From Psammoneis japonica (lineage: Eukaryota), in assembly GCA_008632985.1 (NCBI GenBank), contig QPGO01000055.1:1-64000 (forward strand): a stretch of 64,000 nt of DNA. The letters are read 5' to 3'. Position numbers and translations under genes: made by a program. This document shows positions 8,501-64,000 of this stretch, piece by piece. Under the pieces are notes generated by a model. The model saw only the letters and a list, made by a program, of their open reading frames with translations, was not told the origin of the DNA and did not search any database. Each line of letters begins with the position of its first letter. Within the stretch, counting starts at the first letter, position 1.

Positions 8501-11500
8501 AATACTTTGTTATAGTTTTTGGAACGCCTCATGCTGTACTGGCGGGTACCAACTTTTTCCAGGACAGGAGCAGCGTGGGGCGTCACGTGCAGTTGTGTCA
8601 TTCACTGCTGGATAATGCGATTAAGCTAACGAACTATTTGGATCTAGCTATGTTTCTGTTTACTACTAAAATAGAGTGGGATGAACGGCTCAATTGTAGT
8701 GTGCTACTCTCTTGTAGCTACAGAGATGAAGCGACCGAAGGGTGCGATGCCCAAGACAGGTGTGACCAGTGTCCAACGCAAGACCAGCTCGTTGCAGTCT
8801 AGGGAAAGGAGAAAAGATCGCACACCTTTTATCTCTCTTATCTCTTATCTTTCATGATGACTCTTCCAATTCCTTTTTCATGATTTCTAGCATCCCAGAT
8901 GCCAGTCGTAGATTCCAAACCAAATCGAAAAGCATTGATGATTCCTCTCAGGCAACAACCTTTCACACGAAAATGCACAGAATTGCACACCTTCATTGGC
9001 AAAATGATTTGCTCACCAGGAGGTGACCTGCACCAGTGGGGAAGCCACTTCCTGCCTCCCAACAACATGCATGTGCAATCAACCACACTGCATGAGTTCC
9101 ACATCAAGAAGCCCACCTCTCCTGTCATCTTGTGAAACCAAGATCTGACATCAACTGGTGCTCTGGTTGCAGCCTTGCCAATGGAACACTTCAAGTGCTG
9201 CACAATGTTGTCAAGTCATGGCAAAAGAACACCTTTGTTGAAACAAGAGGATGGCTCTCCAAGCTGTGAGAGTTGTTTTGCTTGTCTTGTGCCTTTCTTG
9301 CATCTTGCACCAGGAATCATGGATTCACCCATGTTTGCTCTGGAGCACTTTTTGATCAAGCCAAAGACTTCATTTGCAACCAGATGGCATCTCCTCAAGT
9401 GCATCAAGTTTGTGAATGCTCTGCTCATGCCAGCACAAGTGTCTGCACATTGTCACCATGATGCAAGAAAGACACCCCTCATTTTCCACCCTCAAGAAAT
9501 TGCACACCACAGTGTGCCCTTTTGGCTTGCCCTGTGAGCGGGGTGGGTCTCAAAAGCTTTTTTTGGAGCATGGAGGCACAACAAAAAGCAGCACTTCCCC
9601 AAACCTGATGCAGACGAAAGGAGGCTGGGTCAGACTGGAGTGTTGCTGATGAGCACAATCAACCTGCAACACACAATGGCCAAGCAGCAAAGTGTTGTGG
9701 AGAGGGTGGGTGGCAGCTGTGTGGTCTTCACAACACAGCTGCTGCTTGTGTCAAATGTGGCGCAAATGAGGACAGCTGACAGCAGCTGTGTTTCTTTGGT
9801 TGCAAAAAAGCTGTAAAAAGCTGTGCTGTCAACAAAGAGTGCCATTGCTGTGCTGCCATTGACTTGTGCACTCAAATGACACTGCACTTGAAAATGGTTG
9901 CCATGTCTCAAGTGGGTCCAAGAGCCACCCTTTAACTTCCAGGTGCCCAAAAGAAAAATGACTTGGCACTGTTGTGAATGACTCTGTCAAATCTGTTGAG
10001 GTTGTGCAGATGGAGCGCTGCTTTTCCAGGTCCAAGCACAGTTGTCACAGCAACTTCTTCTGGCATTTTTTTGGATTGTGCTGCTGTGTCAAAGCTTGAG
10101 TTGACACAGCCAACAAGCAACCTGTGGCAGTTGTGAAAAAAGACAAAGCCATCAAGCATTGAGAACATCATTGCAGACATGACAAAACAAGAAGTTGCAC
10201 ATGGGAAGTCAAAAGCTTGAGCATGTCACACACCCAAAAAAGCAATGTGTGCCAGCAGAGGTCACAGCACATGCATGCATGCCAACAGAGTTCACCACAC
10301 ATGTGAGAAGCAAGCACAGAGAAGAAAATTTCAGATTGAGAGCCAACAGCAACATTGACAAAAACACAGCCCACCTCCTGCAAAAATCATCTCTGACATG
10401 GAGGGCAATGATGGAGACAACAAGGATGGGTGCAGCACAAATGTTGAAGTTGAACAAGCCAGCTGCTCAACCACAAGATGTTGAGCCCAACATGCACCCT
10501 TGGTTTGGCAAGGTTCTTTCACAAAAAGCACATGGTGCATTTGCAGCATTTGTTGTGGCTTGGCTCTCTGTTGTTGTGTCCTTTGTCTCCTCATGCTGCC
10601 ACGCATCAATGTTGAGTTTGTCACAGCAAAATGGCAGAGCCACAATGGAAACAAGATCAATGAGAGCTTCCTCAGGCAGCTTGGAAAATGTGCCCATTGT
10701 GCTGGGCTGGGTGCACAAGAGATGGCAAGGGCACTTGCAAAGCCAACAATTTTTTTGCAGATGTTCTTGATGCAAAGACAAGAAGCCAAAAAACATGGAG
10801 CCAGTGCAAGTCAATTCTTTGTGACAGACAAGAAAAAAAGGTGCCTCCTGAGCAACACCTGTTCCAATCATGTTGCACTGCTCTCAGGTCAGCCCAATGA
10901 CTCACATGCCCCTTTTTTCAAGTGCTTTCATGGAGCCAGCACACTTGAAGGATGACATCAAAATACAGAGCCACTGCTTTGGGAGCCTTCAATTTCTTTT
11001 CCTGGCTTCCTGATGCTTTGTTGCACAAATTTGTTGTTCAAAGCTGGAACCATGACATCAGATTTGTGTTCTTGGCTGCTGCCCACAACATGTCAGCTGC
11101 TTCAATGGCTGGGAACAAATTGGGCATGAGAATTTTAGATGACTGTGTCATGGAAGGAGCTGCTTGAGCTGCCTCATTCAAAGTGTGGGGGATGACTGGG
11201 GATTCAAAAAAAATGCTGGGAAGGAGTGAGTTTAGTTTCCAGGGCACCCTTCTGCAAGACAACAGTCTTGAAAGACAAAACATCAAAGCTGGGTGATGCT
11301 TGTGAAGATGGTTGTTTGGACAAAGATGCGAGCACTGGAAGCTGCCTGTCAAAGTGCCAGCAAAGTGGACAACAAGCAAAAAAGAAGACAAACTTGTGAA
11401 ACCAAGTTGTCAAGGATGAACAAGATGATGCCAAGAAACCCAAATTCTTGACATGATGCACAAAAATGCACCCTCCATTTTGTGGCATGTTGGAAGGAGT

Positions 11501-13849
11501 TCAAGCAAATTGGGGGCACTGCAGCATGGCTGGTCCAGCATTTCTGGCAACAACTTGGTTTGCCACTTTTGTTTTGGGTGTGTCAAAAGAGGAGTTTGTG
11601 GAAAGGTTGTTGTTGTGTGCTGGTGAATTTTGTTCGCTGCCAGAGGCTGGGCCAGCTGCATGCATGAAATCACATTGCTCCTGGCAGCAAAAAAAGCAAA
11701 CCCAGATTCAAAAAAGTTCTGAGAGGCTCAACTGAACAGAGACAATGGTTGGTCACCTTGACAATGACAAGCTGGCAAAACCAGCACATTCAGGCAATCT
11801 GGTGTGTGTCAGAGTCAACATGGAGAACACTCAAAAGTTGTGCTTGACTCTCTTCAACGTGATGGTGAACTTAAACTTCTGCTGCAAGCAACAATTTTCA
11901 CACCAGCTTTGATGACAACAACTCAGTGCCAACTGTTGGGTGTGTCCCCCATTTGGACAGCACTGATGATGTAAGAAAGTCAACCATCCCCAAGATTTGC
12001 TCCAGGTCCAGGAGGTGGGAGGAGCTTGTGCTGCTGGGTTGTGGAGAAATTTTTTTTGACTGCCTGGCACCAAATGCACACATTTCTGTGGTGTGCTCTC
12101 TTTTGCAAAATTGATCTGTGCCCCTGTTTTGTGAAGCCAAAGGTTTTTGTTGCACCCATTTCTGAGGAGGCACAATTTTGGGCTGGGCATTTTTTCATTT
12201 TTTCTGAAGAAAAAACACCTGGGCACACCACAAAGTGTGTGCTTCAACCATGATGGTTCTCTCTGCCATCAAGAAGCATTGTTGAAACACATGCCAACTT
12301 GAGCTGCTCCAACTCAGTGAGCTGTGTGGTCCATGTTGTTGTGACATCGTGACATCTCCAGCAAAAAGCTGGAGCCTGCTCTTGGTTTCACACCCCCCCT
12401 CTTGTGAGCCACCCAGCAATGGCTGCAGTGCCTTGAACTTCCAGCTCATCAGGAGGTGCAGGAAGTGAATTTGGAGATTGACAGCATTGTTTGCCTTGGC
12501 AGCAATGCTCTTCTTGAGCATCTTGCTCATCAGCAAGGCCTGTTGTTCCAGGCATTCAGTGGCAGCAAATCCTTGATGACAAGCAACTTGCAACCTCATC
12601 TGGTTGTTGTTGCACCTGCAATGCCACAGAGCAGCTGCAAGTTTGCATTTCAAACATGAGCTTTCACATGTTTGAGTGGAAAAATGTGTGCTGGTGGCAA
12701 TCAGCTTGCTTCAGCTGCTGGCTCCTCTGCTGGCAAACCTGGATGCCAGGCACTGACATTTTTGTGTCATTGCTTGTTGCTGCATTTGGCACAAAACCAG
12801 CAACAACCAAACAACTGAGTTGCACAAATGTGTCAGTTGACAAATGCTCCCACACATCTTGGCTTTTGCCTGCGTGCTCAAGATCAACAAGCTGCAATTT
12901 AAAGACAAGCTTGATGGACTGCTCACATCTGGCCCCAGCAAACCCAGGTGTTGCACAAGCATTTTTTGACTGACATGATGCACTCAACCAACAACTGCAA
13001 TGACACCGCCATTGTGCCATTCACAACACCTGCTCTGGGCTGCTGTGAATGTCAGAGTGGCTGCTGAGAACCAGGAAAGACAAAACCAAGAGTTGATGTG
13101 GCAATGAACAGATTTGCAAAACATTGCAGAGGGGCTCTCTGAGTCATGCTGCGCACACACACACAGTGGCTGGCAATGACACATGGTCAAGTTCAACTGC
13201 CTGGAGAGACATGGGGTGATCTCATGGGTGCATGACAGGCAATCTGAGGTGTTTTTGTCTTTGTTTCTGTTGCCGCTGCTGCAGCTTTTTAAGTGCTCTC
13301 CTCTTGTCAGTTTGGGTGCTTTTTAAGCTGGACATCTCTTCCAGGAATCTTCACAAACCTTGGTTTTTTGTGCCTGCAGGTGCCAAAATTTCTTTTGTGT
13401 GCCAATCACGCCGCACAAGTTCCCATTGCTCATCCCACATTTTGATTGATTGCATGGAGCATTTTGATTCTCTCTCTCTCTCTCTTTCACATGCAGCCAG
13501 AGAGTGCATTCTGGCAGCCCAAACGTTTTTTCACACAGAGCCACCAACTGGGTTCCTTGCCCACCAAAAAGCACTTTGTGCACTCTCCATTTTTCTGAGC
13601 TTGTGGTTGGCTGGCTCGTGTTCAAAGTCAGCTCTTTCACATCGTTTTGGTGTTGCCTTGCCGGGCTCTATCTCTTTATGATCTTGTGTGGTTTCAACGG
13701 ATGCATGCAGTGCAGTTGTGACCGTCGCCAAAAGGAACACAAAGATTGCACACATTGGAGACAGAACATTGTCATTGATTCAGTCAACGCTCCAATGCTC
13801 ATCGTCAACTGTTGCATCGTGTGAGTGCGCGTTCAACGGTCGAATCCCC

Positions 13850-15985
13850 TCCTCAGTTCCTTTTTGCTTTCACCAGGGCACGCATGTGGAAAAAATGCAG
13901 AATGTCCTTCTCACTCGAGGCAACACAAAAAATGTGATGCCAACTCGCATCCTCACAATTTTCTCGTCTCGCATCTTTTTTTGCGTCCCCCATGAAGCTC
14001 CCTTCAAAGACTCTCCTCGTCTTTGCCTTCCCTGGATTGGTTGCCGTTGCGCAAGCCTCAGGTGTGTTGAATGAAATCGGTTGAAACTTTTGCATTGTTG
14101 AAATTCCAATTGTTTCACTCACTGTCTGTTCCATGCTGCTTCGTGGTGACTGCAGACAGGACCTGTGCCGCTGACATCTCGACAGGCGCTGCGCTCATTG
14201 ATGGCAACAGCATCAACAACAAACCAATGACTCCAGTGAGGAAAATGCTCAGGACTGGCAAGCGCTGCGACAGGCAGATGGAGAAGCAGGAACGAGAGGA
14301 TCCAGACAGAAGGACGAAGGAGGAAGGCAAAAAGGACGAGGAAGAGAGCGAGTCGGAACAAGAAAAGGACAAGGAAGAGCGCGAGGCTGAACGAGAAAAG
14401 GACAAGGAAGAGCGAGAGGCTGAACGAGAAAAGGACAAGGAAGAGCAAGAGGCGGAACGTGAAAAGGACATGGAGGAACACGAGGTGGAACGCAAAAAGG
14501 CCAAGGAAGAGCAAGAGGCAGAACGTGAAAAGGACATTGAGGAACGTGAGTCGGAATGTGAAAAGGACAAGGAAGAGCGTGAGGCGGAACGAGAAAAAGC
14601 CAAGGAAGAGCGTGAGGCTGAACGTGAAAAGGCCAAGGAAGAACGCGATGCGGAAAGCGAAAAGGACAATGCGAGCAGGAAGGGGGGACTTGAGAAGGAC
14701 AAGGAGGAACGTGAAGAGCAAGACAACGAGCCAACTGAGAAACGCGGAAAGCAAAGCAAGCCTGAATGGGGCATGCCCAAAAGCACCAATGCAGAAAAAA
14801 TGATGAAGTGCAAATGCGCAGTTGTGCGAAGGAGGGATGTTTCAATGGAAACGACGAAGGCATGTGCGCAGGTTGCGAGTCATGTCAGTGATGATCTTGC
14901 GCATGTGCACCCACAGGAATTGTTCGGAGTTTTGTTTCCGGATTCGTCGCGTCACTGCACAATTTGTCTGACAACGTGGCTGCAGCAACCCAAAATGCTA
15001 GAGATCTAGTTGCTGCAGTCTGTTGGTTCACCCCTCAGCATGACAAAGATGTTCATTTGTCTTTTGTGCGTGCAACAGTCAGCTGTGTGTTTGTGGCTTC
15101 ATTCTGCATCAAGGAACACATTGTGGCATTGCGCTCCCCACCTCCGTTTCTATCTTCAGCTGTCACAATTCACACCAGCAGCATTGATTGTTGCAGTCAT
15201 CACTTGGAACTCCTGCCGGCATGGTAAAACATGTGTGGCTCGCGCTTTCTTGGGCTACAGTGATTGACAACAGCCTGTGCAGCCAAGACGAGGCTCTTGG
15301 TTTGAGCTGCTGTGATGATCAATTTATGTTGGATGGAGTGGCCAGCCTTCCCGACAGTGTTTGTCCCACTTCCATGTCATGATGTTGTTTGGACTTTTTC
15401 TTTTTCAGCTTGTTGCTGACGACACTTGCTGGTTGTTGCGAGGCAAAGTTGAGAACAAGCAGTCGCACCCAAGAGAAGACGCAAAGATGCAGGCAGCAAC
15501 ACTTGCAGGTCGTGGCAGCACCAAGTTGGCAATGTTTTTTCGGCATGCAACAAGAGGAGCCAAAAAAGAAACGTCCAGTGTTCGACTCTACACCCACATG
15601 ATTCTTCTTGGCAATTTCCTCAGCCTGTGCTTGGCCACCAACATGGCACTTGCCGTCAAGTCATCGAGATTGAAAAGAACTTGATGCGGTGTGATGTGGC
15701 TTGGTTTGAGGTAGACCACATTTTTTCTTTTGCTTCCATCTGAGTGGATTCTTCTTCTTCTGCCCGTTGTAGAACTGGGTGGTGTTGCAACCCACAATTT
15801 GCCACATTCATGAGAGAGTGTGGTTCTCTTGAGGCACGTGGCAGCAACCAAAGAATTGTGTGCTTTGTGCCAAAATGCACACCACCTCATGTCAGCTGCT
15901 GTGGTTTTTGTCTAGAGACCCACTCTCTAGAGTGTTTGCAGCATCCCCCGTGGTGCTTTTAGATGCAAATGTCTCCAAGGGCACA
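13850..15985 (+). repeat. Copy 1 of a ~2.1-kb diverged direct duplication
   Basis: Collinear similarity with ~24150-26295, e.g. ctttgccttc..ggattggttgcc..gcaagcctcaggtg and ggcaatttcctcagcctgtgcttggcc. Confidence 0.85.
13992..14800 (+). pseudogene. Secreted protein with 11-aa charged tandem repeats (EKDKEEREAER), copy 1
   Basis: Signal-like MKLPSKTLLVFAFPGLVAVAQAS and intron 14062-14155 in frame with the E/K repeat ORF; 33-bp tandem repeats at ~14350-14720. Confidence 0.6.
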
Positions 15986-16049
15986 TTGAGAAAGGTTGCT
16001 TGGTTGTTGGATCAATGAGATTGTCAGAGTTTGTCAGTGCAATTGCATG

Positions 16050-16560
16050 ATCCAGCATTGCCTTGGACTCAACAGTCATGTCCACATGAGCAACCTTCCA
16101 GTTGCTTGTCTCTCCTTTGATGGTTGACTGCTTGAGAACTTTCCTGAGTTTGCAATGCTTGAGAACATGGCCACCCTTCACTCAGCAGGATTTCTTTGTT
16201 GTCTGACCACCAATCTGGATGTGGGAAAGAAGGGTCAGAGCAGCCGACAGCTTTTCCTGACAATGTTGTTGGCACAAACCACTTCTGCCAAATGTGGAAC
16301 ATGGTGAAGGCATGGCTTGTGGCAAAGGTCAGGAAGTGCTGTGGACTCCACGGGCAGCTCCCATTTTGTGCACACAAAGAAATTCTTCTTTTTTGCTCAT
16401 GTGGTGGTGACACTCTTCAGCTTTTGACCGACAACTTCCAACCCAAATCTGTCAGCAAAATGTTTGATTGATTCAAAACCAGGACATTGGCCAAAAGAAA
16501 AAGAAGAGGGGTGGGGATCAACTTTGTCTTGGAAAGAGGCACACTGGTTCAGCACCATGG
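16050..16560 (-). pseudogene. Degraded ORF fragment, inverted paralog of 17200-17740
   Basis: MVLNQCASFQDKVDPHPSS..KHFADRFGLEVVGQKLKS and CHKPCLHHVPHLAEVVCANNIVRK align with the + strand copy. Confidence 0.6.
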
Positions 16561-17199
16561 TCAGCCATTGGGGCAGTGGTGTGAAAGACTTGGTCATGCA
16601 GAAATGTGCAGAGCTTGACAGTGTGTCATTGCCAGGCACAAGTTGGTGCACTGCTGTGAACATCAGAGGCCGCAATGTTGTGGTGTTCACTTCTCTTTTT
16701 CTGATTTATGACATTTGACGTAATGCAAGTTTGGCTTTTTTTGTTTTTGCATTTGGGGGTTGTTTGGCCAGTGCATCATTTGAGCGTTTTGCAGCATCCC
16801 TTCTCACCAATGTTTTTCATTCATTTTTCTCAATCAATCCAAGTGTGCCTTTGTTTTGATTTCAAAACTTTTTGCTTTGATGACATTGCTGCATTTCTTT
16901 TGATGCATTGTCTTTGAAAGTGGTTTTCAATGCCTCAACCCCATGCACGTGCCGCTGCAACAGCTGGTGTCCCCTCCACACCAAAGTCACTCCCCATGCA
17001 CACTTGCCTCATTGTTTCCTCCAGCACTTCCAGAACTTCAGTGCATGGCTCTCTTCTTGGTTTTTAGCACATGTTCTGCAGGCACAATTTTCTGCGCATT
17101 TCACAACAGTGCATCCTCTCCCCAAAATGCATTTGACCAGAGCATGCACTGTTGTGATTCACGCGCGTTCTGTGTGAATCAACACATCTGACTTCCAGC

Positions 17200-19400
17200 C
17201 ATGGCGGTCAATGACTTTGCCCCATCCCACAAGGAAGTCGACCCCAACCCTTCCTTCCAATTTCCTGATGAGTGTGATGTTGATGAAACAGAACATTTTG
17301 CCAATGGCTTTGGAGCAGAGTTGTTTGGACCAAAGCCCAAAAGTGCACAACTTCAATGCGTGCATCCAAAAAGCAGTTTTGGAGACAACAAATTGGTCCC
17401 CCTCTCCAGAATTCCTTGCTCTTCCCTTCCTTTGTCACAAGCCAAAGTTGCGTCACATCCCACATGTTGCAGAAGCCATCCGCACCAACAACATTGTCAG
17501 GAAAACTCTTGGATGCTGTGACATTTGGTCCTGCATCATGACTTTTGGTTGGCCCATGAAAAAATCCTGTGTGCTGAAAGGTGAGCATGTTCTTTGTCAT
17601 CAAAATTTGGAGGAACAAGCTCTCTGTTTCTCCAAAGCACCTGGAGAGACAGAAAAAGAAGAGGAGCACCACATGCAACTTCGCCACAATGTCAATGCAA
17701 AGGCAGAATTTGTGCATTGCCGGCAACGACCCAAATGACCCTGCATCTGGCCAGCCTTGTTTCCATTTTTGCAGTGCAAAAGTCTCCAAGATCTGATCAA
17801 TGGCCAAGCACATGACCTTCACGGTGCACACTTTGTCACCAAAATCATCATGCGTTGTGTCCAGCACAAATCCAAGGACATGGACTGTTGGTTCATGCAG
17901 ATTTTTTGCCGTGTCAATGCCCAAAAGGAGTGGCGCATGTTTGTCAATGGCTTTCTTGCAACACGCAATTCCAATGAACCCGGTTCCCAGGAGGATGAGA
18001 TCAAGGGGTTCCCTGGAGACAAAATCAGCAACGTTGAGAACTCTGTGACATTGGCGGGCAATTCCCTTGCCCGTTGTCAGGCTTGTGAAGAAAAAATCAA
18101 TTCCATGTTGAATCATGAATTTGGGAAGTGCTGTCCCAAGGAGCAACCTGACATGCAACCCAGGCACAGCAAGCAGCTCACAATGCTTCATTGCAGAATG
18201 TGTGATCAAAGGGCTGACCACATGGATGACGATGACAAATGAGACCACAAATCCAAAACCAAAACACAAAATCAGGAGGATCCGCAAAGATGGCACCTGC
18301 TTGCATGATGGCAAGTGCCCCCCCCCCTTTGCCTTTGCTGCCTGCATGCATCTGTTGCCTCATGCATCCTTTCCCCCCCTGACTTCACATGCCCCACCAG
18401 AGCCTTCCTTGACCATCCCCAACAAGAAAGCCAAGAGCATCATGCTCTGACCCCGCATCTCCTTCAGCATCTTGTGATGCTGTGATGTCATCTGGGGAGG
18501 CCCGCCACACTCTCACTGCCAATGTTCCCACCTTGTCAGAAATTGCGGATCTGCCAAAAGCTTCTTCTCCTTCCAAAGGTCCTCCCTCCAAATGGCACCC
18601 CTCTTGGGCAGGTGTTTCCACAATTGCCCAGTTGTTTTGTCTCCTGCCCCAGCCAACGACATGTCATGGCTGGACAAGTCCACCATCCACCAGTGCTTTG
18701 ACCCATCCCAGTGTCAATCTGTTGCCTCAGAGGAAGTTGCTGCCCATCTGCCACACCTGCACATCATTGACAAGGCCACTGATGCCGAGCGTGTGCTGCA
18801 TCATTCTGCTGCCAACTTTTACCTTGCAAACAACTTGAGGGAAAACTGGCACATGTTTTCCAACAAAACCAACTCAAGCAATCCCGCCACCGCCTTCCGT
18901 GTCCAAGCTGAGCACCCTCCTCACCTGGATCACTGCCCTGCTCAGATGAACTGTCCGTCACCTGACAAGCAAATGCTCTGTGAGCCCGGCTCTGCCAAAT
19001 CAGCCAAACCCAAGGCCACACATGGTCTTGATGTTTTCAATCCTGGCAAAAACTTCAATGCAAGTGAGTCATCCAAAATCAAGGCCATGATGGCAGACAT
19101 TCTTGACTCAACCCAGCTGTGAAAAAACAAGATCAAGCTGCAAAACTCAGCAATCCGCTGCCATTCAACTGGTCTCTTGGTCATGAGGAGCACTTGAAAG
19201 TTTTGTGCAAGGAATTGGGTTGTCTGTGCCATGAAGCTGGCAGATTCATGTGAGCGCCAAGTCACACACAACACTCCCTGCAGGTTGTGGTGGTGGTGCA
19301 ACAAATTGGAGTTCTTCAAATTGACGCCAAGGATGGCAAGCTGTTGGACATTGGATGTCATCAAGAGAATGAACCTTGGTGAGGATTGCAAGTGTGACTG
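17200..19400 (+). pseudogene. Degraded, frameshifted long ORF of unknown function inside the island
   Basis: Successive protein-like frames (MAVNDFAPSHKEVDPNPS; CHKPKLRHIPHVAEAIRTNNIVRK; LINGQAHDLHGAHFVTK). Confidence 0.45.
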
Positions 19401-20563
19401 AAAAGAAAAGAAGGAGAGATGATGGTGCAGACATGAGCACAAGGAGAGCTTAGAAAGGATCCATCATGAACATGTCGAGCAATTTGTTGGCTGTGTTTGT
19501 GAGGCGACAAATGCGTTTGATTGCGTGACTGATTGCTCTCACAACGGGAGGTGTGCAGCAATTTTGTCGTTGCACATTTGGAGGAAGATGCCATGGAAGA
19601 AGTGGACTGGAATTCGAAGTTGGTGTGCCAAGTCCAGAAACAGGCTTGGAATGACAGTTTGCACCCAAAGTTGAGGATGGATCATCTAGATGAGGCATTT
19701 TTTTAATTAGCTCGTGATTTTGCAATTTCCCCGCACTTCGCCCGTGTTGTTTTGCAATGCCTCTGAGCACCGCCAAACACATGTGACTGTGTCCAGCCCC
19801 CATCAGGGCTGTTAGATCTGTGTGTGAACTACACATTTCAACCTTCAAATGCCAATTGTCGCATTCGGCGCAGTTGTTGCATGTGACAAACTGCCATTTT
19901 TCGCCAAAATCGCACTGCTTGTGGGAGACAAGCCACAATGACTTTCCAGGAAAAGCCGATGATTGGCGTTTGACTGGCTGCAGACACATCTGCAGTCGTT
20001 GAGCTAAAGATCGCGCATGGTCACAACCATCGCAAACACATTCTATGATGTCTTTCGAAGGGACAAAGTTCGACCTGTCGCTGAAAATATTTTGTTGGTG
20101 AGCGCGCGCATCCAGTGCAAGAAATCCGGGTTTTTTCCAAAAAAATGCGAGCTCGCGCGCAAACAGACCTCATCTCGACGATCCATCCTCAAAGCCTTTG
20201 CAGGCACCAATCTTCATGTGTGTGTCTGCATCAGTTATGAAGATGAAAGACAACAACAAAATTCAACATTGACTTCATCATTGATGGTTGCAATGGCTGT
20301 TTAAACTGAACATTTGATCACCAAAATTGTCGCAAACACACTCAAGGATGGGGCGCTCAATGGGGAACTTGCACGTTGCCAATTTTGACCATTCTGAAAA
20401 GGTGTGGTGGTTAAAATGTAGAAGCATTGGGAGGAGTGTCACATGTTGAGTGTCAAGACAGAGGTTTGAAAATTTTGCAACGGCAGTCTTCCTCTGACGA
20501 CCTGTTGCACAGTGTGATCACAACAACTGTGAGCAGCTGCAACAGTGCATTGAGACAAACGCA

Positions 20564-21729
20564 ATGGCAAGGAGGAAGGCAGTGAAGGACAGGATGATGG
20601 CAGAGGCACCACCAAACAGCCTGACAGCAGCCTTGCAGTGGGCGGGTGCAGCAGGAGATCACCAATCTCTAAAGAGAGAGGTGGAAGAGGTGGCACGGAG
20701 AGAGCCATTCCCAAAAACGAAATTCCTTGTGAAGGCAGACATGGCAAGTGGTGGCAAGGTGTCATGGCCAGTGTGGAAAAACACAGTCAATGGCAAGTTC
20801 AGTGAGTGCAAATGGGCAGAGGGTTGTGGGAGGACTGGGCAAACAAATGCGTGCTCAATGCAGTCATTGCAAAAAAGAAATGCCGTGTGTCAGTCAACAA
20901 TGAAGAGTGCGATGAGCAGCAAGTGCTGTGGGGTGCATTTCCAAAGTGGGATTGGGTGTGGTGCTGCTGACAAGATTCTCATTTTGCTGCAGCTGTGATG
21001 ACAAAAGAACAAGCAGGAATCTGCGGAAGCAAGAAACCAGCAAAGAGAGCCAAAAAAGCAAGAAGAGCAAAAAGGCCCAAGCGGACAATGAAGAACAGAT
21101 TCTGGCAACTTGGGAGGATAAGACAGCTGATGCCATTGTGTCTGAGAAGCGGACAAACAAGGAGGCACATGCATGGTTCTGTGACAACATCCTGAAATTC
21201 ACAAAGAGCGCTGCAATGCAGGGAAGGATGGTGGAGTGCAGCAGCACCAAGGCCACAGATCCAGCCGCGGTGAGCAACGAGGCACTGGTGCTGTTGATGT
21301 TGGAAAACTGCTGGAAGGTTTGGGAGCACAAGACCACACAGGAAGGAAAGGACAAAGGGAGCGAAGAGGAGGAAGAGAAAGCAGAACTGGTGCCCTTTGT
21401 GCACAGCCCCAACACAGCATGAATCTTGGAATGACTGAGGTGTGCTGCGATTCAACACCCTCCTTGGGGAGGTCAAGGAGGACAGGGCAAGTGATGCGGG
21501 TGTGCATTTTGACATGTGGCACACCAACGGAAAGAAAAGGGAGAGCAAAGGTGAAGGAAAAAAGGGCAGAACCAGTGAAAAACCAGTGGAGACAGAGATG
21601 AGAACACAAGCAACAACAGAACTTTCCAGTGACAATGAGGAGGACTGTGATGCAATGGACAAACCTGGCAACAGAAAAGATGAGGAGGAAGATGTAGAGA
21701 GCAAAGAAGACAGCAACAACGGCAAATGA
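20564..21729 (+). pseudogene. Degraded ORF with VSNEALVLLMLENCWKVWE motif and acidic tail; probable accessory ORF of a DNA transposon
   Basis: The motif resembles the SDEA(F/L)xLLxLENxW..W motif of diatom repeat-associated ORFs (from memory, not searched); frameshifted. Confidence 0.4.
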
Positions 21730-22849
21730 GGAACAACTCCATCAGCACAGGCCAGTTGAAAATGCAACACGGCTGACACCATGGCATTGGCTTGGAGTTC
21801 ATTTGTCATCCATGTGAAAAAGCAAAAGCAACAAATCATTGTTGATTGAGGAAAGCAGTGCAAATTCATTGCACAGATCACATCAAATGTAAAATCAACA
21901 TGTGACGTGAGACAAACAATTGACATTGATTGTCAGCTTCTGCAGCAAAGGAGAAGTGCACACACACAGATGGGAAAAAGGGGTGCTGTTTGAAAGTCAA
22001 TGTTGATTTCTTGCAGTTAAAAAGAGGGCTCTACAGCAAAAATGATGGACTTTGACAGATGAAGAATTGTTGCCATCTGCACAACTGACAAGGTTTGAAG
22101 CTGCAAAAATGTTGTCCATGAAAGGAACAAAAATCGCTGTGAGAAGGGGGGTGTCAATCACCACACAATGCACGCTCTGATGAAGTGCACTCAAAACCTT
22201 GTGAATGGAAAGAATGTGGTGGGGGGCAGCTCAAACAAAAAAGGATGGAAGATGTGAGGTGGGGCAAAGAGAAAGCAAGGAAACACCATGCGCTGACATG
22301 TTGGATGGCAGGCTGCACAGAAAATGACACTGAGATGTGTGCAACAAGGTGACAGATCACATTGTGACACCAGGTGTGACATGGATTGCATGTGAATGAG
22401 GGCACAGCTCTTGGGCAGAACAACAAAGTGCGCCATCAACACCAAGAAGTTTGTGGTTGTTGAAGCAAAGACATTGCAAGCAACTGGGAAAATTGTGCTC
22501 ATTTGAGCAAAGTTGCAGATCAACACAAATGTGAAAAAAACATTGTGAGAAAAGAAACAAGACAAAGCAGATTTGCACGGAAAGCAGCAGATTGACATGG
22601 CAAGCCACCTGTCTTGTCATCAAAGAGAAAGTTTTAAAAGTTGGCACAGATGTGCAACTCAAAAGAGCTGGTTTAATCTGCTTGAGTTTGGGACAACATG
22701 GGTTGCAATTTCAGCCCCATTGGAGCTGTTTGTTGGAATGTCAGTGTCAAATTCAAAAGTTTCAAAATCAAGAAGCGCTGCATGGTTTCTTGCAAGGAGT
22801 GACAGCACATGATGTGAATGTGTTCACAAAATGACCACATGATGCCAGG

Positions 22850-23980
22850 TGTGAGTTTTGCAAAAATGCGCTGAATCTCGCTCTTTTCACATTCAAAAAT
22901 GCAAGCAACCATGTTTTTTGACAGCAACAGGCAGCCCAAGTGCAGCAAAAAACCCACATCCAAGCACACAGGAGTCAAAAGCAGTTGCTGTTGAGATTGC
23001 CGCAGCAATGCTGGAAACAGCTTCTTTGTCCCTTGTTTTTTCATCACTTGATTCATCGACTCAACGCACGGCTTGGATCAGAGCTCAACTCAGCCACAAG
23101 GACTCAGCTTGGTTTTCTGCTGCTGCTGGCATCATTGCATTTGTTTTTCTGCCATGCTCTCCAGCACCAGCACCAGCACCAGTGCCAGCACCAGCACCAG
23201 CAAAAAATTGAGCTGAGCCCTCATTTTTGCCCCATGTTTAGTGGCCATTTTTCTCATGCTCGCTGAAGTGGTCTCATTGATTTTTTGCTGCCACTTGGTG
23301 ATGGTTGGTTGTCAAGTTGGCTTGGGGTTGGCTTGGCCCAGCTTCAAAAGTTGTGCCTTTTTTGCACAATGCCCCAGTTTGCCCCCCCCCCCCCCCCCCC
23401 TTTGCAGATTTCTGCTTGTCAAGCACCAACAGAAACTCAACACAGCGTCTCAGAGTCCATGACCAATGCACATCAAGCAGCAGCACCACCCGACAAGAAA
23501 GCACCAGCGTGGTTCATAGGATGGCATCTTGTCAGAAGAAGAAAAGTGCCTTTGCTGCAGCACATGATGCATCAGCGCACTTTGCGCCAGATGCGCCGAT
23601 GTGGTTTTTGAGGCCACACACAGCTCTTTTGTTTGGAGGCAATCAGTGCCAAATCATTCAACAAAAGTTTCAAGATCAAGAAGCATCATGCAGTTTTGTG
23701 TGAGGAGCGACAGTGTGCGATGTTTGTGTGTTGACAAAATGATTGCATGCATCTTGCAAGCACGTGCTGAATCTCACTTTCACACTCAAAAATGTTGGCA
23801 ACCATGTTTGACAGCAATGGGTGGCCCGAGCGTGATGTGGCACCCAAGTCCAAGCACACGCCAGTTGCCGTTCTTGAAGATTGTCGCAGCAACAAAAACA
23901 GTTTGATGATCCCTTGGTTTTTTCATCATTTTGTCGATCGACTCAACATGTGTGGGTCAGATGAGGACTCAATTCAGCCA
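22850..23980 (+). repeat. Two diverged ~240-bp direct repeats (~22850-23095 and ~23745-23980)
   Basis: Shared gctgaatctc..ttcaca..tcaaaaatg..gcaaccatgttt..acagcaa..tccaagcacac..tttttcatca..atcgactcaac. Confidence 0.75.
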
Positions 23981-24149
23981 TTTAATGTCCAGTCCCCCCA
24001 AAAATAAAATGATGGAGAGAAATTTGTGTTCAAGCCCTCTTGCTGCCGGCAACAATCTGTCATTTCCATGCAAACAAAGTCAATGCTGTAGATTTTAATT
24101 TGAACATGGTGACTCTGGAGTGGCACTTTGACTCTGCAATGTCCTTCCT

Positions 24150-26295
24150 CATGTCAACAGCAAAAACAATGTTGCCAACTCCACTTGCTTCACTCCTCAC
24201 AATTTGCTCGACTTGTTTTTTTTGCAAGACCCCGAACAACATGAAGCTCTCTTCTCTCCCCCTCTTTGCCTTCCTTGGATTGGTTGCCATTGCGCAAGCC
24301 TCAGGTGTTGATTGCGATCGGTTGACACCTTTGCATGTTTGAAACTCCAATTGCAAATTTCACTCACTGTCTGTTCCTTGCTGCATCGCGTGATGACTGC
24401 AGGCATCTCGACAGGCATTGTCCTCACTGATGACGGCACAGTGAAGGAAAGGGACGTGGTCATGGCAAGCAAGATCGCCCCATCAAGGACAAACCGACGA
24501 CTCCTGCAAAGAAAATGCTCAGGACTGGCAAACCCGACGACCGGCCGGTGGAGAAGGAGGAACGCAAGAAGCCAGACAATGAGCCCACCAGGACCAGGAC
24601 TGGCCATGCGGAAAAGGAGGAATGCAAGTTGGAATGCAAAAAGGACAAGGAAGAGCGCGAGTCGGAACGTGAAAAGGACATTGAGGAACGTGATGCGGAG
24701 CGTGAAAAGGACAAGGAGGAACGCGAGTCGGAACGTGAAAAGGACAAGGAAGAGCACGAGTCGGAACACAAAAAGGACATTGAGGAACACAATGCGGAGT
24801 GTGAAAAGAACAAAGAGGAGTGCGAGGTGGAGCGTGAGAAGGAGAAGGAAGAGCGCGAGTCGGAATGCGAAAAGGATGCAGACGAACGCGATGCGGAGTG
24901 TGCAAAGGACAAGGAGGAGCGCGGTGCGGAGCATGAAAAAAGGAGAAGGAAGAGCGCGAGGCCAAACATGAAAAGACACAGAGGAGCACAGGTCAGAACG
25001 CAAAAAGGACAAAGAGGAACGCAAGGGGGAACTCGAGAAGGACAAAGATGAGCGAGAAAAGTCAGACAATGAGCCCACCAAGAAACGTGCAAGGAAAAAT
25101 GAGCCTGAAGGGGGCAGGCCCACATGCACCAAGGAAGAAAGGATGCAGCGCAAATGTTGCAGATGCAAGAAGGAGGGATGTTTCCATGGAAACACAGATG
25201 ACAAGTGCGCAGCTTGCAAGACATGTTAAAATGACCTTGCGCGTGTGCACCGGCAACAATCATTTGGAGTTTTGTTGCCGGATTCATCGCGTCACTGCAC
25301 ATTTTGTCAACTGACAATGTGGCTGCAGCAACCAACAATGCCAGAGATCTGGTTGCTGTGTTCCATTGGTTGTCCTCTACATGACAAAGATGGCCATGTG
25401 TCTTGTGTGCGTGCCAAAGTCAAGTGCATTGGCAGCATCATTCTGCACTCACACGGTGTTGCGTTCCTCACTTGCACCTCATTTCTGGCTTCAGCTGTCT
25501 CATCATTTCCCCTGGCAGCGTTGATTGTTGCAGTTGTCACTTGGAAAAACTGTGGCAAAACATGCATGGCTCGCGCTTTCTTGGGCTACAGTGTCGACAA
25601 CAGCCTTGCTGTGCAGCCGAGACGAGGCTCTCATTTGAGCTGCTGTTGGCAATCAATTTGCATTGGACAGCAGAGCAGCCGCCCTTCCCGACAGTGCTTG
25701 TCCCACTTCTGTGTCATGATGCCATCTGGACTTTTTCTTTTTCAGCTTGTTGCTGTGCGAGGTAAAGTTGAGAACAAGCAGTGTGCACCCAAGAGAAGGC
25801 ACAAAGACGCAGGCAGCAACGCTTGCAGGTCGTGGCAGCACCAAGTCGGCAACATTTTTTCGGCAAGCAACAAGAGGATCCAAAACGAAACGTCCAGAGT
25901 TCGACTTCCCGCATGATTCTTCTTGGCAATTTCCTCAGCCTGTGCTTGGCCGCCGACACGGCACTTGCCGTCAAGTCATCGAGATTGTAAAGAACTTGAC
26001 ATGACACAGCTTGGGTTGAGGTGGACCGCGTTTTTTCTTTTGCTTCCATCTGAATGGATGATTCTTCTTCTGCGCATCGTAGAACTGGGTGGTGTTGCGA
26101 CCCACAATTTGCCACGTTCATGAGAGAGTGTGGTTCTCTCGAGGCATGTGGCAACCAAAGAATTGTGTGCCGTGTGCTTCGCGCCAAAAAGCACACCTGG
26201 TGTCAGTCGCCGTGGCTTTTGTCGAGAGACCCACCCTTTAGAGTGGTTTCAGCATCCCCTCTAGCACTTAGATGACAAGGACTCCTTGGGTACAA
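24150..26295 (+). repeat. Copy 2 of the ~2.1-kb diverged direct duplication
   Basis: Collinear with 13850-15985 through to gagacccac..tagagtg..cagcatcccc. Confidence 0.85.
24241..25100 (+). pseudogene. Secreted protein with 11-aa E/K repeats, copy 2 (frameshifted)
   Basis: MKLSSLPLFAFLGLVAIAQAS, intron 24305-24402, frameshift before the EKDKEERESER repeats (~24610-24940). Confidence 0.6.
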
Positions 26296-26603
26296 TAAGA
26301 GTACAACAGACGAGTTTCAGCTCAACATCACTGTCGCTTGTTGCCATCATGGCTCGTTTTGTGAAGTTGAACTCCTTCCACCTTACGTAGCGCCAAAAAA
26401 AGAATAAAGACACCGCTGGAACACGGAATCCAACCAGTTTTGGCGCGCTCAGCAACAGATGTCGCAGAATTGTCTGATATACATCCACACATAAATGTAT
26501 TCCTCATCTTTTGCCAACAATGACGAGCGAAGCACACTGAAGTGAAGGATCGCACCCCGTTATTTATCAGTTTGCTGTTTTGCTGTTGAAGAGAAAGTCC
26601 TCT

Positions 26604-59449: not shown

Positions 59450-61611
59450 TGCCAACGGCATTCTTTGCAACTTGTCGCCACCTGTCGAGGCCGCAGCAGC
59501 AGTTGCAAACTTTTGACGAAGGGAGCGACATGCACCAACCCTTGTTCGGCTGTGGCTGCCACCCCTCCTGCAGCCGCCGGTGGAGCACCGCCGGCACCCC
59601 CAAAAACATGCCATGACAAGTGGATGAGCCAAGGAGATCAGTTGGGTGGGGAGTGTGCGAATTTATTTCGCCGGTGCGACACCACCGTCGCTGCTCCCGA
59701 GCCGGCCGCCACGCCACTCGAGCACATCATCGACTTGAGCGACTTGGTGCCAAAAGCCTTTTTGGCTCTAGCACGGCAAGGCGCAGGTTGTCGTGTCACC
59801 TGCATCCACCGGCCCTCAGTTTGTGTCAGAGACCCGGTGGAGACCTCGCCGTGGGACGGTCGTGTGTTTTGTTTTCAAGGAGACATCCTCCCCGGTAACT
59901 TCATTGCCATTCTTGAGATGCCCAACACTCCGTTCGACATCGTGGGGCCGCAGGTGGTGCCTGCGGTGGCTGACATGGCCACCCTAGAAGGTGTCTTGGC
60001 GGACGAGAACGATCCAATGCCGCCTCAGACCGACGGCGCCCCGGATGCCAACACGATCTACGTCCGTCATCTCGTGCAAGTGCCCCGCGCATGTCTGCAT
60101 CTTGTGTTGACTCGGGATCTCACCCCGCTGCAAGCATGGCACAAACTGGCCGGAGCGATTCAAAATGACGGATGCGCGGGGGACTTGAGCCCTCTCATCG
60201 ACTGGCTGCGTGCGGCCCTCACTGCCGACACTGCAGCGAATCCCGATCCGGTTCATTGCCTGGGCAACCGTGCCACTGCGTTGCCGCCACTCGCGGTGGA
60301 CGCCAGATTGCAGGAGCATCGTTGGCATGCGTTGTTGCAAGACCTGCCCGCCTTGGACACAATGGCCGTCGACAACACCGACCGGGTGCTCGCCTTTGCC
60401 AACGCAGTGCGTGTCGCGGCCGCGGCCTCAGCTCCAAAAATGCCGGCTGAAGCCTTCCCTCAAACTGCACCCTTGTGGCTCTTGCTCTCAAGCGCACCGG
60501 ATGATGCAGCCCTGCCTGCGCTGCACCACGCTTGGGCCAACAGCACCAAGGCCGAGCGGCGCCTGTGCTTTGCTCACGCCTTGGAAGCCCGTGCCCAAGA
60601 ACCCGATGCTGCGTCTCGCACAGCACCTGCAGTTTCAAAGGAGTTACACGAGATGGTGTTGCAAGGAAAGGCAGCACCCCACGTGCACCAAGTGAACGAC
60701 TTGACCGCCGGCGTCTCCCCGTTTGCTTGTGGTTTCTTTCTCGCCGGCCAAGGCTCTGCCGCACAAGTTCGGGCCGAACGCTGTGACCTGGCATTAGCGG
60801 GCAACTTGACGCCCACCGTTGCAGAGCAAGAAGAGTTCCGGACCAAGGACACACCTCTGCCCTCGTCCACCTGCCATTGTGGGAGCATGCTCCAAGCTGC
60901 CAGCTTGGTCTTGGACGTCATCCAAGGGTCGAATCATCCCCATGCAGTGGCGTTCCTGCAGCTCTGCTTGGAAGACTGGCGGGACATGGTCGACTTGCTC
61001 GAGCAATCAGGAGCGTTGCTGGCTGAAGGAAACGCACTCCCCCGCATTTGTCGTGAGGTGCAGACACTCATGGGGGTTTGTCTCCGCAGGCTCATGCAAG
61101 GCGGCATGCCCCGAGCGCCCGATTACACGGCGGTGGCGTGCAAGGTCTTGCACGGGCAATTCTCCCTGTTGGCACAATTGCCCCATCATTTGCTCGGCCA
61201 GCCAGACCAGGCGACTAACCCCCAGGTGAGCTCGACCAGCGCCAGCAACAGTGGCACCCCTTCCACAGCAGCTGCCGCGGCTGGGCGTCGCGACCCTGGT
61301 GCAGCTGTTGCGAACCCCAACCCGGTGCGATCGTGGCCAACTGCCTTCGCACAGGCCAGGATTGCCTGGCCACGGTGCGACGTTTCGCGCCTCGAACCAC
61401 AGACTCGAGTGGTGCCGCGTGCGAGGTGTGCCTGTCGCACCACCTCAAAGGAACGTGCTTTGCCAACTGTGAGTGCAGTGGTGCGCACCGAAACCTCTCG
61501 CTGCGAGAGAGGACGGCTGTGAGCACCTTCGTTCGCGACCACGTGTCCAACCCCCAGGAAGGTGGCGCCCCAGCGCCGGCACCCACGCCGGCACCGGCGG
61601 CATCCACCTGA
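59450..61611 (+). pseudogene. gag-like ORF1 of the YR retrotransposon (frameshifted)
   Basis: Long Ala/Pro-rich ORF ending, after a frameshift, in CLSHHLKGTCFANCECSGAH. Confidence 0.7.
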
Positions 61612-61662
61612 GGACGGGGGCCGGCTGGCCCCAGAGCCAGCCTGCAGCCCTCCTCTGCTTGC

Positions 61663-63720
61663 TTGCCAGATCCGCATCAGCAGCACCCACGCAGCAACGA
61701 ACTAGGTGAGTTAGCAGAGGAACATGTTAAACTCCTGCACACTTTAGGCTGGAGCCAGTTCGTTGCACACCTGTGCAGGGAGCCGTGTCTGGCTGAGAAT
61801 GTTCAGCAGTTACCCCATCCTGCTGCCAAGCTTCTTTCTAGTCTCCGTAACGACGGAGCTCCGGCACAGTTCTCAACGGAGGACTGGACATCGGACCAGG
61901 TCCGGATGGCCACCGAACGCGGTAGGCCATCCATCCACCAACGAGTGCCTGGGCTTCCTCGAGTCGGACATGGCGGACATGATCCAGAAGCGACACTGGA
62001 CAGTCTTGCCGTACCGCGAAGCCTGCAAGCTGCCCCACCTGCGCGTCTCACCAATGGGCGTGGTGCCGCAACGCGACCGCCGCCCGCACACCATCGTGGA
62101 TTACAGTTTCTACGGTGTCAACGACGAAACCGTGAAACATGCCCCTCCGGAAGCCATGCAATTCGGTCGCGCGCTTGACAGGTTCTTGTGCAATGTCTTC
62201 CGCACCAATCCGAAACACGGCCCAGTGCACATGCTGAAACTCGACCTCTCTGACGGTTTCTATCGCGTGGGGCTTCGCCCCCAGGACATGCCCAAGCTTG
62301 GGGTGGCCTTCCCAGCAGGCCCGGGCGAGGAACGCTCACAGCGCTACCTCTCGTCCTGCCCATGGGCTGGACGGAGAGTCCACCTTTCTTTTGTGTTGGA
62401 ACGGAGACTGCAATCGACTTGGCAAACAACCACGTGCCTGCAGCTTGGGACCCTCCGATTCATCCACTTGAACAAGCGGCAGCCACACCAGCACCCCATG
62501 ACGACACCTTGCGGATCGATGTGCCGCCGCCTTCTAATGCAGCCCCAGCTAGCCGCGTCTCACGCCTTCCTTCGCCCGCCGCTCTTCGTCGCAGACGCCA
62601 ACGCGGCTCCCAGCCATTGGAGTGCTTCGATGTCTACGCAGACGATGAGATGTGCGCGGCACAAGGTTCAAAAGCGCGTCTCAACAAGTTACGTCGTCGC
62701 CTCCTGCATGTCAATGACCAAGTCTTCCGTCCCAACACAACTGCCGATGCACACTGGCGCCGCGAAACTATCTCACTGAAGAAACTCCTCAAAGGAGACG
62801 CGTCGTGGTCAATGGTCAAGGTCATTTTGGGCTGGCTCATTGACACCCCAGCGGGTGCCATGCAATTGCTGCCGCATCGACGACAACGCCTCCTGGACAC
62901 ACTTGCCGACACCATCCCGCACCGCCGCGTGTCAAACAAGCATTGCCATAAACTCATTGGCGAAGCACGCAGCATGTTGTTGGCGGTTTCTGGCGGTGCC
63001 GGCCTGCTCTCCAATCTCCAGCACTCGCCAGCCACCTCAAGTGACTCCCGCACTCGGATCAACCGTCATGCGCGCCGTCAACTCCAAGACTTGCACGCCC
63101 TGGCCGTCGACATTGCTTCTCGTCCCACAAGGCTTGCCGAGCCATTCCCTGCCGCCGACGGGCACCACTGCGGTGCATGCGATGCCGCCAAGCCAGGTTT
63201 TGGTGGCGTGTTGTCACCAGGCCCCAGTGACGACTTCCCTCCTACAGCATGGCAAGTTCCGCTACCACCGGACCTGCAGGCCGCCATTGTTTCGGACGAC
63301 AACCCCGCTGGAACAATGACCAACTCCGATCTCGAGCTAGCCGGCACAGTGCTTCAAGAAGCCGTCGTCGGCATCGCCATCGATGTCAGGGAACGCACGG
63401 TCCACATGTGCTGTGACAACACCCCGGCCATCTCTCGGCGCGGAAAAGGCTCTGTCACCACCGACGGTCCCGGCGCCGACATGTTGCGGACCGGCAGTCT
63501 CCAACAACGAAAACTCCGACACATCTCCCGCTTCCATTGCATGCCTGGTCCAGCCAATCTCCTCGCCGACATGTGCTCCCGGAAATTCACCACACCCTCT
63601 CACCTCCTTGCAACTCTCACTCGCCTTGCTCCACAGACGAAACCTTGGCAAATGCTTCACCCGCGCCCGACATCGTTTCTTCACTGATCTCCGCCTTGCG
63701 ACGGCAAAGGCCCGCGAAGC
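61663..63720 (+). pseudogene. Reverse transcriptase-RNase H (frameshifted)
   Basis: SPMGVVPQRDRRP..IVDYS, KLDLSDGFYR, MGWTESPPFFC, YADD, CDAAKPGFGG, NSDLELAG, CDNTPA, GPANLLAD. Confidence 0.9.
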
Positions 63721-64000
63721 TGTCACTGCTGAGCGAGCCCGTGCCACGGACACCGTCTGGGCCAAGTGCTGGTTGCCTTTCTTGTCCGACATCGGAATCG
63801 ACAACCCTCTCCTCACCAGCGTCCAAGACAAAATCCCAATGCTCTGAGTCTTTGCCCATCGCCTTGGGGATGGATGCCTCAGCCGCAGCGGTGACCCAAT
63901 CTCAGCTCCGCATGTTCGTGACGAAGTCCTTCACGTCGCGGAGACGTTCACCGAACTGGGTGCCCCGGACCCGCGTCCAATGCCACACGGCATGATGGAC
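63660..64000 (+). pseudogene. Tyrosine recombinase N-terminal region (premature TGA at 63845-63847)
   Basis: W..FL..IGIDNPLL...L*VFAHRL.DG.LSRSG.PI...V......VAETFTELGAPDPR, typical of the N-terminal part of YR-element recombinases. Confidence 0.7.

Follow-up and report, generated by a model that had tools for sequence, protein, structure and literature searches.

The stretch of DNA analyzed here, hereafter the window, comprises 64,000 nucleotides from the diatom Psammoneis japonica (contig QPGO01000055.1 of assembly GCA_008632985.1, positions 1 to 64,000). It contains an island of repeated DNA from which the dinucleotide TpA has been almost completely lost, with edges placed by change points at 8909/26239. 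The island and its contents are listed below, with observed/expected ratios (o/e) and with the strand where one was assigned.

8911..26238: TpA-depleted repeat island; TA o/e 0.052, CG o/e 0.35, CA+TG o/e 1.72, GC 0.479.
9554..11514, plus strand: heavily decayed member of a transposon-like family; the better-preserved members have an open reading frame (ORF) of ~1490 amino acids; superfamily not assigned.
13901..15991, plus strand: copy 1 of a host-like gene; short, with a signal-peptide-like start and E/K/R repeats.
16660..19230: part 1 of a high-copy repeat family without a Pfam match; 24 of 24 fetched copies TA-poor.
19670..20195: high-copy element of ~520 bp; copies 87-91% identical, TA o/e 0.03-0.45.
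20300..22180: high-copy repeat, matched at several loci that also match 16660-19230.
24138..26300, plus strand: copy 2 of the host-like gene.

The island is a mosaic in which decayed repeats stand beside the two copies of the short host-like gene. A TA-normal paralog of that gene (L026:5270-6570), 250 kb from the island copies, provides a reference for what has been lost: of 26 aligned TA in each comparison, 18 are now CA or TG and 3 are kept in copy 1, and 23 are now CA or TG and 1 is kept in copy 2. The two copies differ from each other by 29 CA<>TG swaps. Where a site is asymmetric and its flanks are conserved, 16 of 19 changes in this duplicated gene lie on the TAY side (Y, pyrimidine; R, purine), with p=0.004 for a count in which the copies may share events. 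In this genome of 91.4 Mb, the fetched copies of the family at 16660-19230 range in CG o/e from ~0.1 to 0.97 and have low TA throughout. That TA is always low while CG varies so widely indicates that the loss of TA is separate from, and faster than, CpG decay.

Protein domains offer little help in naming these repeats. In a Pfam search of 13 ORFs in or beside the island, the cut-off was passed by the flanking DAGK gene alone, and the main repeat families carry no Pfam names except for PF01612 in one ORF. This 3'-5' exonuclease domain is found in a TA-normal relative of the family at 9554-11514; no transposase Pfam was found in the family of L030:4600-9072, which has the exonuclease domain. That locus (minus strand) has a 1490-residue open frame in which replacement of Tyr by Cys or His is heavy N-terminally and light C-terminally. 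A homolog search with a piece of the flanking DAGK gene gave no match; the named homologs of one host gene come from diatoms (Skeletonema, Thalassiosira, Seminavis, Nitzschia, Fistulifera, Pseudo-nitzschia, and others).

The TA sites that survive in the island are the starting point for understanding how the others were lost. A sequence-only reading of this DNA had considered positions 9810-19840, the left 60% of the island; these limits are arbitrary, the natural unit being 8911-26238. The features that bear on the survivors are as follows, positions being counted from the changed A (T = -1).

9810..19840: range of the sequence-only reading; at 32 of 34 survivors one strand has T at -3 (TNTA or TANA).
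10963..10966: sole RTAY survivor of that range (ATAC), which also has the protective A at +2.
16719..16724, plus strand: CGTAAT survivor, one of the two without T at -3; a CpG lies directly 5' of its TA.
60000..64000: the window's second TA-poor block, with TA o/e 0.18, CG o/e 0.90 (intact); RTAY 1 and YTAR 10 of 27.

Composition predicts 684 TA in the range where 34 survive (o/e 0.05, as compared with 0.59-0.61 in the flanks), and GC of the island is unchanged at 0.479 as against 0.47-0.475. The survivors comprise 18 YTAR, 15 mixed (YTAY or RTAR), and 1 RTAY, whereas the mix of flanks found locally at TA, CA, and TG sites together predicts 8.5, 17.0, and 8.5 (chi-square p=1.5e-4) and RTAY:YTAR is 473:307 in TA-normal DNA of the window (Fisher p=8e-7). 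Over the whole island the 61 TA divide into 29 YTAR, 30 mixed, and 2 RTAY (p=1e-6). Depletion is thus far from equal among NTAN contexts: relative to TA-normal DNA, retention in the range is 0.007 for RTAY, 0.060 for mixed sites, and 0.187 for YTAR, and nearly the same values (0.008, 0.054, and 0.196) are obtained from 490 classified TA in 152 TA-poor 1-kb windows at 44 other loci. The earlier observation that purine-TA-pyrimidine is almost absent is borne out by the single RTAY among the 34, and its ten cited sites are all correct (9933 TTAA; 11136 and 11233 TTAG; 12900, 13290, and 13324 TTAA; 15007, 15913, and 19687 CTAG; 10964 ATAC). Its description of the survivors as mostly TTAA, TTAG, or CTAG fits 18 of 34, a bare majority.

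Separately assembled contigs from a public run match the island closely (for example, 8000-12170 with 9 letters different), which argues that the island is not an assembly artefact, the run possibly being the source sample. At the sole RTAY survivor, such a contig has T at 10966, giving TATA rather than TACA at window positions 10964-10967, and at position 22032 a contig reads C where the window has TA; judging from these letters, both look like TA/CA polymorphisms between haplotypes or isolates. Elsewhere in the window, a smaller block at 34000-36000, with a ~340-bp repeat at 34002-34339, is partly depleted of both dinucleotides (TA o/e 0.33, CG 0.55).

Survivors alone confound loss with gain, and young copies were therefore compared to obtain polarised rates. 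The main set consists of 17 young Copia copies, 95-98% identical, each paired with one natural copy (the Copia set). Among the 3413 differences in this set, 1976 are TA>TG (1276) or TA>CA (700). The change at TpA is almost purely a transition, with 1524 A>G, two A>C, and one A>T, and it is restricted to that dinucleotide: A>G per site is 0.36 at TA and 0.006-0.009 at AA, CA, and GA, i.e., 40-60 times rarer outside TA. At 164 of 207 mutated sites both products, TG and CA, occur in different copies, so that hits appear largely independent in each copy. In the long terminal repeat (LTR) pairs of 17 of 18 insertions, 88 of 148 differences are TA<>TG/CA and 29 are CA<>TG; that sister LTRs differ mainly at TA places the events in chromosomal DNA after insertion. 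The A:T>G:C change at TpA therefore acts on both strands and post-insertion, and the LTR pairs and 95-99% identical copies show that the process is recent. Loss of TA per copy (17-79%) follows loss of CG (2-7%; rho 0.74, p=7e-4), not transversions.

Several further observations concern the young copies. In the Copia elements, the 5' LTR and leader (L087:53-900 and the matching parts of all 17 copies) are about 3-fold less mutated than the body and 3' LTR. Strand-coordinated clusters of changes, suggested by eye in one copy pair, were not found in the 17 copies. Comparison of L066:3050-3560 with L068 (98.7% identical) shows several A>G changes at TA accompanied by an extra G (A to GG) or by TAA>TGG, possibly a homopolymer assembly error or a real by-product. 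Some young repeats are still TA-normal; a young element of ~720 bp (L106-L112; copies 98-99.6% identical) has near-normal TA, in some copies within TA-poor surroundings, with too few differences for rates. The two named homologs of the Copia element come from Cylindrotheca, and one metagenome relative has normal TA (o/e 0.44-0.83). Among the best 120 of 3284 Copia protein homologs, a sample in which best matches are biased to intact copies, two have at least two Tyr>Cys/His replacements at 17 conserved Tyr columns, one of them with six. That one, P0089 from another assembly, has four Cys and two His, a hint from its protein sequence that the same process may operate in another organism.

How the bases around TpA affect its loss was addressed with a competing-risk model that assigns one hazard to each A. 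In the Copia set, the hazards at +1 relative to A are 2.9 for C (95% site bootstrap 2.1-4.1), 2.1 for T (1.4-3.1), and 1.1 for G (0.7-1.6), a pyrimidine/purine ratio of ~3.1 (2.5-4.3); independent families give 4.1, 2.4, and 1.7. A direct tally in one 98.7% identical pair agrees, with 25 of 160 TAY and 2 of 94 TAR mutated. The fractions kept in young Copia copies are 0.42 for RTAY, 0.42-0.44 for mixed sites, and 0.71 for YTAR, and those in young DNA-transposon-like copies are 0.79, 0.91, and 0.95. In old DNA, TAA and TAG are also more than 90% lost by raw o/e. TAY is, then, a roughly 3-fold preference rather than a requirement. The earlier reading had described RTAY as lost and YTAR as spared; the sparing of YTAR is solid in old DNA, Copia, and DNA-transposon-like copies, whereas RTAY outpaces mixed sites in its loss in old DNA and in the young DNA-transposon-like copies but not in Copia, where other rules interfere. 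Its proposal that the mutator favors the A of 5'-TAY on either strand is supported by the hazards for C and T but is incomplete, as the flanks at -3 and +2 and an adjacent CpG explain the survivors better. Its distinction between a context-specific process and GC-biased drift is upheld by the unchanged GC and by the rarity of A>G elsewhere, and the trinucleotide signatures that it had called for from alignments of transposable element (TE) copies prove to be a TpA-restricted A:T>G:C change with the +1 preference given above.

A stronger rule than that at +1, overlooked by the earlier reading, is a T at -3 or an A at +2. In the Copia set, the hazard is reduced to 0.3-0.5x by T at -3 (TNTA*) and to ~0.4-0.55x by A at +2 (TA*NA), and the -3 effect recurs outside Copia (0.45, 0.29-0.62). 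Viewed from opposite strands, the two are a single base pair, and the survivors are sites that are cold on both strands. Of the survivors, TNTA or TANA is present at 32 of 34 in 9810-19840, at 55 of 61 across the island, and at 693 of 868 in old DNA elsewhere (201 kb), as compared with an expected 45-46%; in control DNA the share is 46% (expected 45%). Two near-duplicate loci, L057 and L068, were excluded from these survivor counts. At other loci, not one survivor is found among 5139 TA/CA/TG sites of the RTAY class that lack both TNTA/TANA and an adjacent CpG. A model derived from young copies predicts the survivors in old DNA with an area under the curve (AUC) of 0.81 in 9810-19840, 0.81 in the island, and 0.79 in the 201 kb of other loci, falling to 0.46 in a TA-normal control; the +1 base alone reaches 0.64-0.69. 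In the GC-rich block at 60-64 kb the model does poorly (AUC 0.62, 27 TA), and the -3 rule is weak there as well (13 of 27 TA vs 33% expected, p=0.15).

The third flank effect involves a CpG directly 5' of TA. In the Copia family, CG at -3/-2 lowers the hazard to 0.12 (0.07-0.21), or about 0.12-0.15, and outside CpG neither C at -3 (1.0) nor G at -2 (0.9) has an effect. CG ranks first among the 16 dinucleotides at these positions (gain in log likelihood 81, the next being 18), and each strand shows the protection (8 vs 59; 44 vs 238; site-level p=7e-6). In old DNA, TACG/CGTA survives 3.9 times as often as TACY within 1-kb strata (control 0.76), a figure that patchiness below 1 kb could inflate. 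A CpG at +1/+2 was considered as a further rule and is not claimed, as its factor, 0.40 in the Copia set, is 1.34 for the remaining families. Thymine and 5-methylcytosine have a 5-methyl group in common. As -3 T and +2 A are a single base pair and C blocks only within CpG, it is probable that the enzyme recognizes double-stranded DNA and that a 5-methyl group at -3 impedes it. Together with the CG-methylated islands formed by diatom TEs (PMC9998398), this suggests a methyl-sensitive, duplex-reading step in which a 5-methyl group at -3, from thymine or from a putative 5-methylcytosine, may block the enzyme.

Taken together, the patterns suggest a host mutator that would act on the chromosomal DNA of repeats and duplicates, converting the A:T pair of TpA to G:C on one strand per event, so that TA would become TG or CA until the DNA is nearly TA-free. 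The most likely mechanism, which we hold with moderate confidence, is that a zinc-dependent deaminase converts adenine to inosine in silent repeat DNA, with G then fixed by replication. Such an enzyme would be favored ~3-fold by a pyrimidine at +1 and hindered by A at +2 (~0.4-0.55x), T at -3 (~0.3-0.5x), and CpG at -3/-2 (~0.12-0.4x). The earlier reading had appealed to a T-A-C type context for TadA-family deaminases, in agreement with the finding that TadA-derived adenine base editors perform best on TAY (PMC10879117). Plausible candidates would be a nuclear ADAT2/3, which has the TadA fold, or a diatom ADAR-like editase without double-stranded RNA-binding domains, recruited to silent chromatin. 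The genome has nine PF00383 matches, including TadA-like and ADAT2-like proteins, and two A_deamin genes. The ADAT2-like protein of the host carries HAE and PCxxC motifs, which an intron splits; in an NDRFGG stretch it has an N that may correspond to N113 of BjADAT2. An ADAR/ADAT1-like editase gene at L123:2172-3888 (plus strand), the second such gene beside the presumed ADAT1, has homologs in many diatoms, and the members listed for this diatom-wide family show PF02137 only; its product is a candidate mutator.

Several points weigh against adenine deamination by such an enzyme. No enzyme of this genome is linked to the TpA pattern; those deaminases that were found resemble a normal housekeeping complement, and neither an expansion of deaminases nor a fusion to chromatin domains was seen in the genome. 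The single natural ADAT2 tested on DNA, BjADAT2, prefers GAA (PMC10354150), and base editors also edit CAT, GAC, and GAT well (PMC10879117), unlike the strict TpA found here. The strand-coordinated clusters and strand autocorrelation expected of a scanning single-strand deaminase are absent within the 17 Copia copies, and the link to hairpin loops that such an enzyme should also show is missing, predicted loops or unpaired probability being unrelated to site rate (rho -0.06, 142 sites). The flank rules themselves are imperfect: outside Copia, protection by CpG is less marked (0.42, 0.15-0.89; raw counts 5:32 vs 16:45, Fisher p=0.20), that by A at +2 is reproduced only in part (1.2-1.9, with 1 inside two of the three intervals), and the flank model accounts for ~30% of the site-level variance (0.103 to 0.073). 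The residual site rates are not explained by local GC, CpG density, distance to CpG, or predicted hairpins. Sequence, moreover, separates neither an A lesion from a T lesion, as 5'-TA*Y is 5'-RT*A on the other strand, nor the specificity of a lesion from that of its repair.

The last of these points gives rise to two alternatives. In one, which we consider unlikely, an enzyme alters the thymine of 5'-RT*A to a G-pairing base, with the same T>C/A>G outcome. Oxidised or O4-alkylated thymine would supply the chemistry, although we know of no enzyme that makes such a lesion. The base pair and the counts would be the same, the rule then favoring a T* that has a purine on its 5' side and leaving T*ACG and T*ANA cold. 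The genome has 27 matches to the C5-methyltransferase domain (PF00145) on several contigs, several intact and several broken, and diatoms carry a RID-related DNMT4 of unknown function (PMC9998398). The literature searched yielded no precedent for this route, however, whereas adenine deamination is established chemistry and TAY is a known deaminase motif, which together favor an A lesion over a T lesion. A somewhat less likely alternative holds that the lesion falls uniformly on all TpA in silent chromatin and that the flank rule reflects context-dependent repair (alkyladenine glycosylase, Endo V, or mismatch repair) or shielding by a methyl-CpG reader. The symmetry of the -3 T/+2 A effect across the duplex fits this view, as does the 5' LTR and untranslated region, about 3 times colder than the element body, from which it follows that chromatin matters. 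Nonetheless, a TpA-specific source of lesions would still be needed, and the +1 rule is strand-specific by the direction test, as fits a deaminase motif.

Other routes account for less of the evidence. An error-prone Y-family polymerase (Pol eta/iota-like) that wrongly places G opposite the T of TA while filling repair patches in methylated repeats would be consistent with the WA hotspots made by Pol eta (PMC6423074), with six IMS-domain matches at about five loci in the genome, and with the correlation of TA and CG loss across copies. We judge it improbable, as AA is no hotspot (0.009 vs 0.36), transversions at TA number 3 of 1527, clusters are lacking, and TA loss is not raised near CpG (neither distance nor density is significant), an adjacent CpG instead lowering it. 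ADAR-like editing of retroelement transcripts, fixed by reverse transcription, is very improbable, and the counts from LTR pairs and from antisense changes refute it as the principal route: both strands are mutated, sister LTRs differ at TA, and non-retro repeats and host-gene duplicates are also mutated. An ADAR-like gene is present diatom-wide and a slight sense-strand excess remains after context correction (1.2-1.3, interval 1.0-1.5), but ADAR1/2 prefer UAG (PMC10661471) and G at +1 is cold here. Least probable of all, and likewise refuted, are GC-biased drift or conversion, codon selection, gain of new TA in T/A runs, and assembly artefact. Many survivors do lie in T/A runs, yet GC is unchanged, A>G outside TA is 40-60 times rarer, the rule is visible both in polarised losses and at TCTA/TGTA survivors, the Tyr-type TAC/TAT are the hottest sites, and contigs assembled separately, possibly from the source sample, match the island.

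Beyond adenine deamination as such lies a more specific proposal, possible but decidedly tentative: that an enzyme dedicated to genome defence exists in diatoms and edits adenine within the double-stranded DNA of silenced repeats, strictly at TpA, reading five duplex bases and sensing a 5-methyl group at -3. If true, this enzyme would be a natural double-strand adenine base editor, an A-directed mirror of fungal repeat-induced point mutation (RIP) that may extend across the stramenopiles, alveolates, and Rhizaria (SAR). Deamination of adenine in duplex DNA would also constitute a new kind of genome defence and be relevant to base editing. The five-position fingerprint (strict TpA, Y at +1, not A at +2, not T at -3, no CpG directly 5') allows a simple assay to accept or reject candidate enzymes. 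Whatever its agent, the TpA process distorts TE dating, Tyr and stop-codon content, and gene annotation in diatom genomes.

Comparison with known systems places this process closest to one other case. In the RIP of ascomycete fungi, which needs a RID-type methyltransferase and a sexual cycle, C>T changes create TpA from CpA/TpG. The diatom process is likewise repeat-directed and dinucleotide-specific, with two-strand transitions that kill transposons and duplicates, but its chemistry is the opposite of that which defines RIP, TpA being lost and CpA/TpG gained. TadA-derived editors of the ABE7.10 type share TAY as best motif (+1 Y/R here ~3.1) but edit CAT, GAC, and GAT too, on single-stranded DNA (PMC10879117), as against the strict TpA and duplex-symmetric flanks found here. 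BjADAT2/3 deaminates DNA adenine in the nucleus, with a preference of BjADAT2 for GAA and hairpin loops (PMC10354150) that differs from the TpA preference, free of any hairpin link, seen in the diatom; nor are the single-strand or hairpin substrate and the clustered same-strand hits of the TadA/ADAT2 type found. ADAR1 and ADAR2 resemble the diatom mutator in their 5' U/T neighbor, duplex substrate, and direction to repeats, yet they act on RNA and prefer UAG (PMC10661471), whereas here both strands of chromosomal DNA are changed and G at +1 (1.1-1.7) lies well below C (2.9-4.1). The WA mutagenesis of Pol eta in somatic hypermutation has A:T mutations and TA among its hotspots (PMC6423074), unlike the diatom pattern in its AA hotspot, transversions, and clusters.

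The closest parallel is the chlorarachniophyte Bigelowiella natans, in which integrated DNA of nucleocytoplasmic large DNA viruses (the NCLDV) as well as of virophages undergoes TpA>TpG/CpA hypermutation at a de novo rate raised ~1000-fold, with only some lines active (Mettrop et al., bioRxiv 10.64898/2026.01.13.699255). TpA hypermutation is thus already known from Bigelowiella; in the literature searched, a set outside which most subscription papers fall, neither a diatom case nor a flank rule for it was found. The main text of the preprint contains no flanking-base analysis and no diatom, and the motif in its figure and its table of mutations, with roughly 230 de novo TpA changes, may affect how new the flank rule is. 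This sole printed case found has no enzyme, an ADAT2-type deaminase being proposed by its authors (bioRxiv 10.64898/2026.01.13.699255). In both organisms A:T>G:C occurs only at TpA and on both strands, leaving clusters poor in TpA and rich in CpA and TpG, and foreign or repeated DNA is struck while genes are spared (here, o/e 0.05 in the island vs 0.59-0.61 in its flanks, and a TA-normal paralog vs two stripped copies). They differ in lineage, the diatom belonging to another branch of the supergroup; in targets, which are here transposons and duplicated host-like genes; and in extent, as loss in the diatom is near saturation (o/e 0.05 vs 0.45 in an NCLDV region) and accompanies CpG decay. Whether the two processes are the same can be tested directly by applying the five-position fingerprint to the existing Bigelowiella mutation table.

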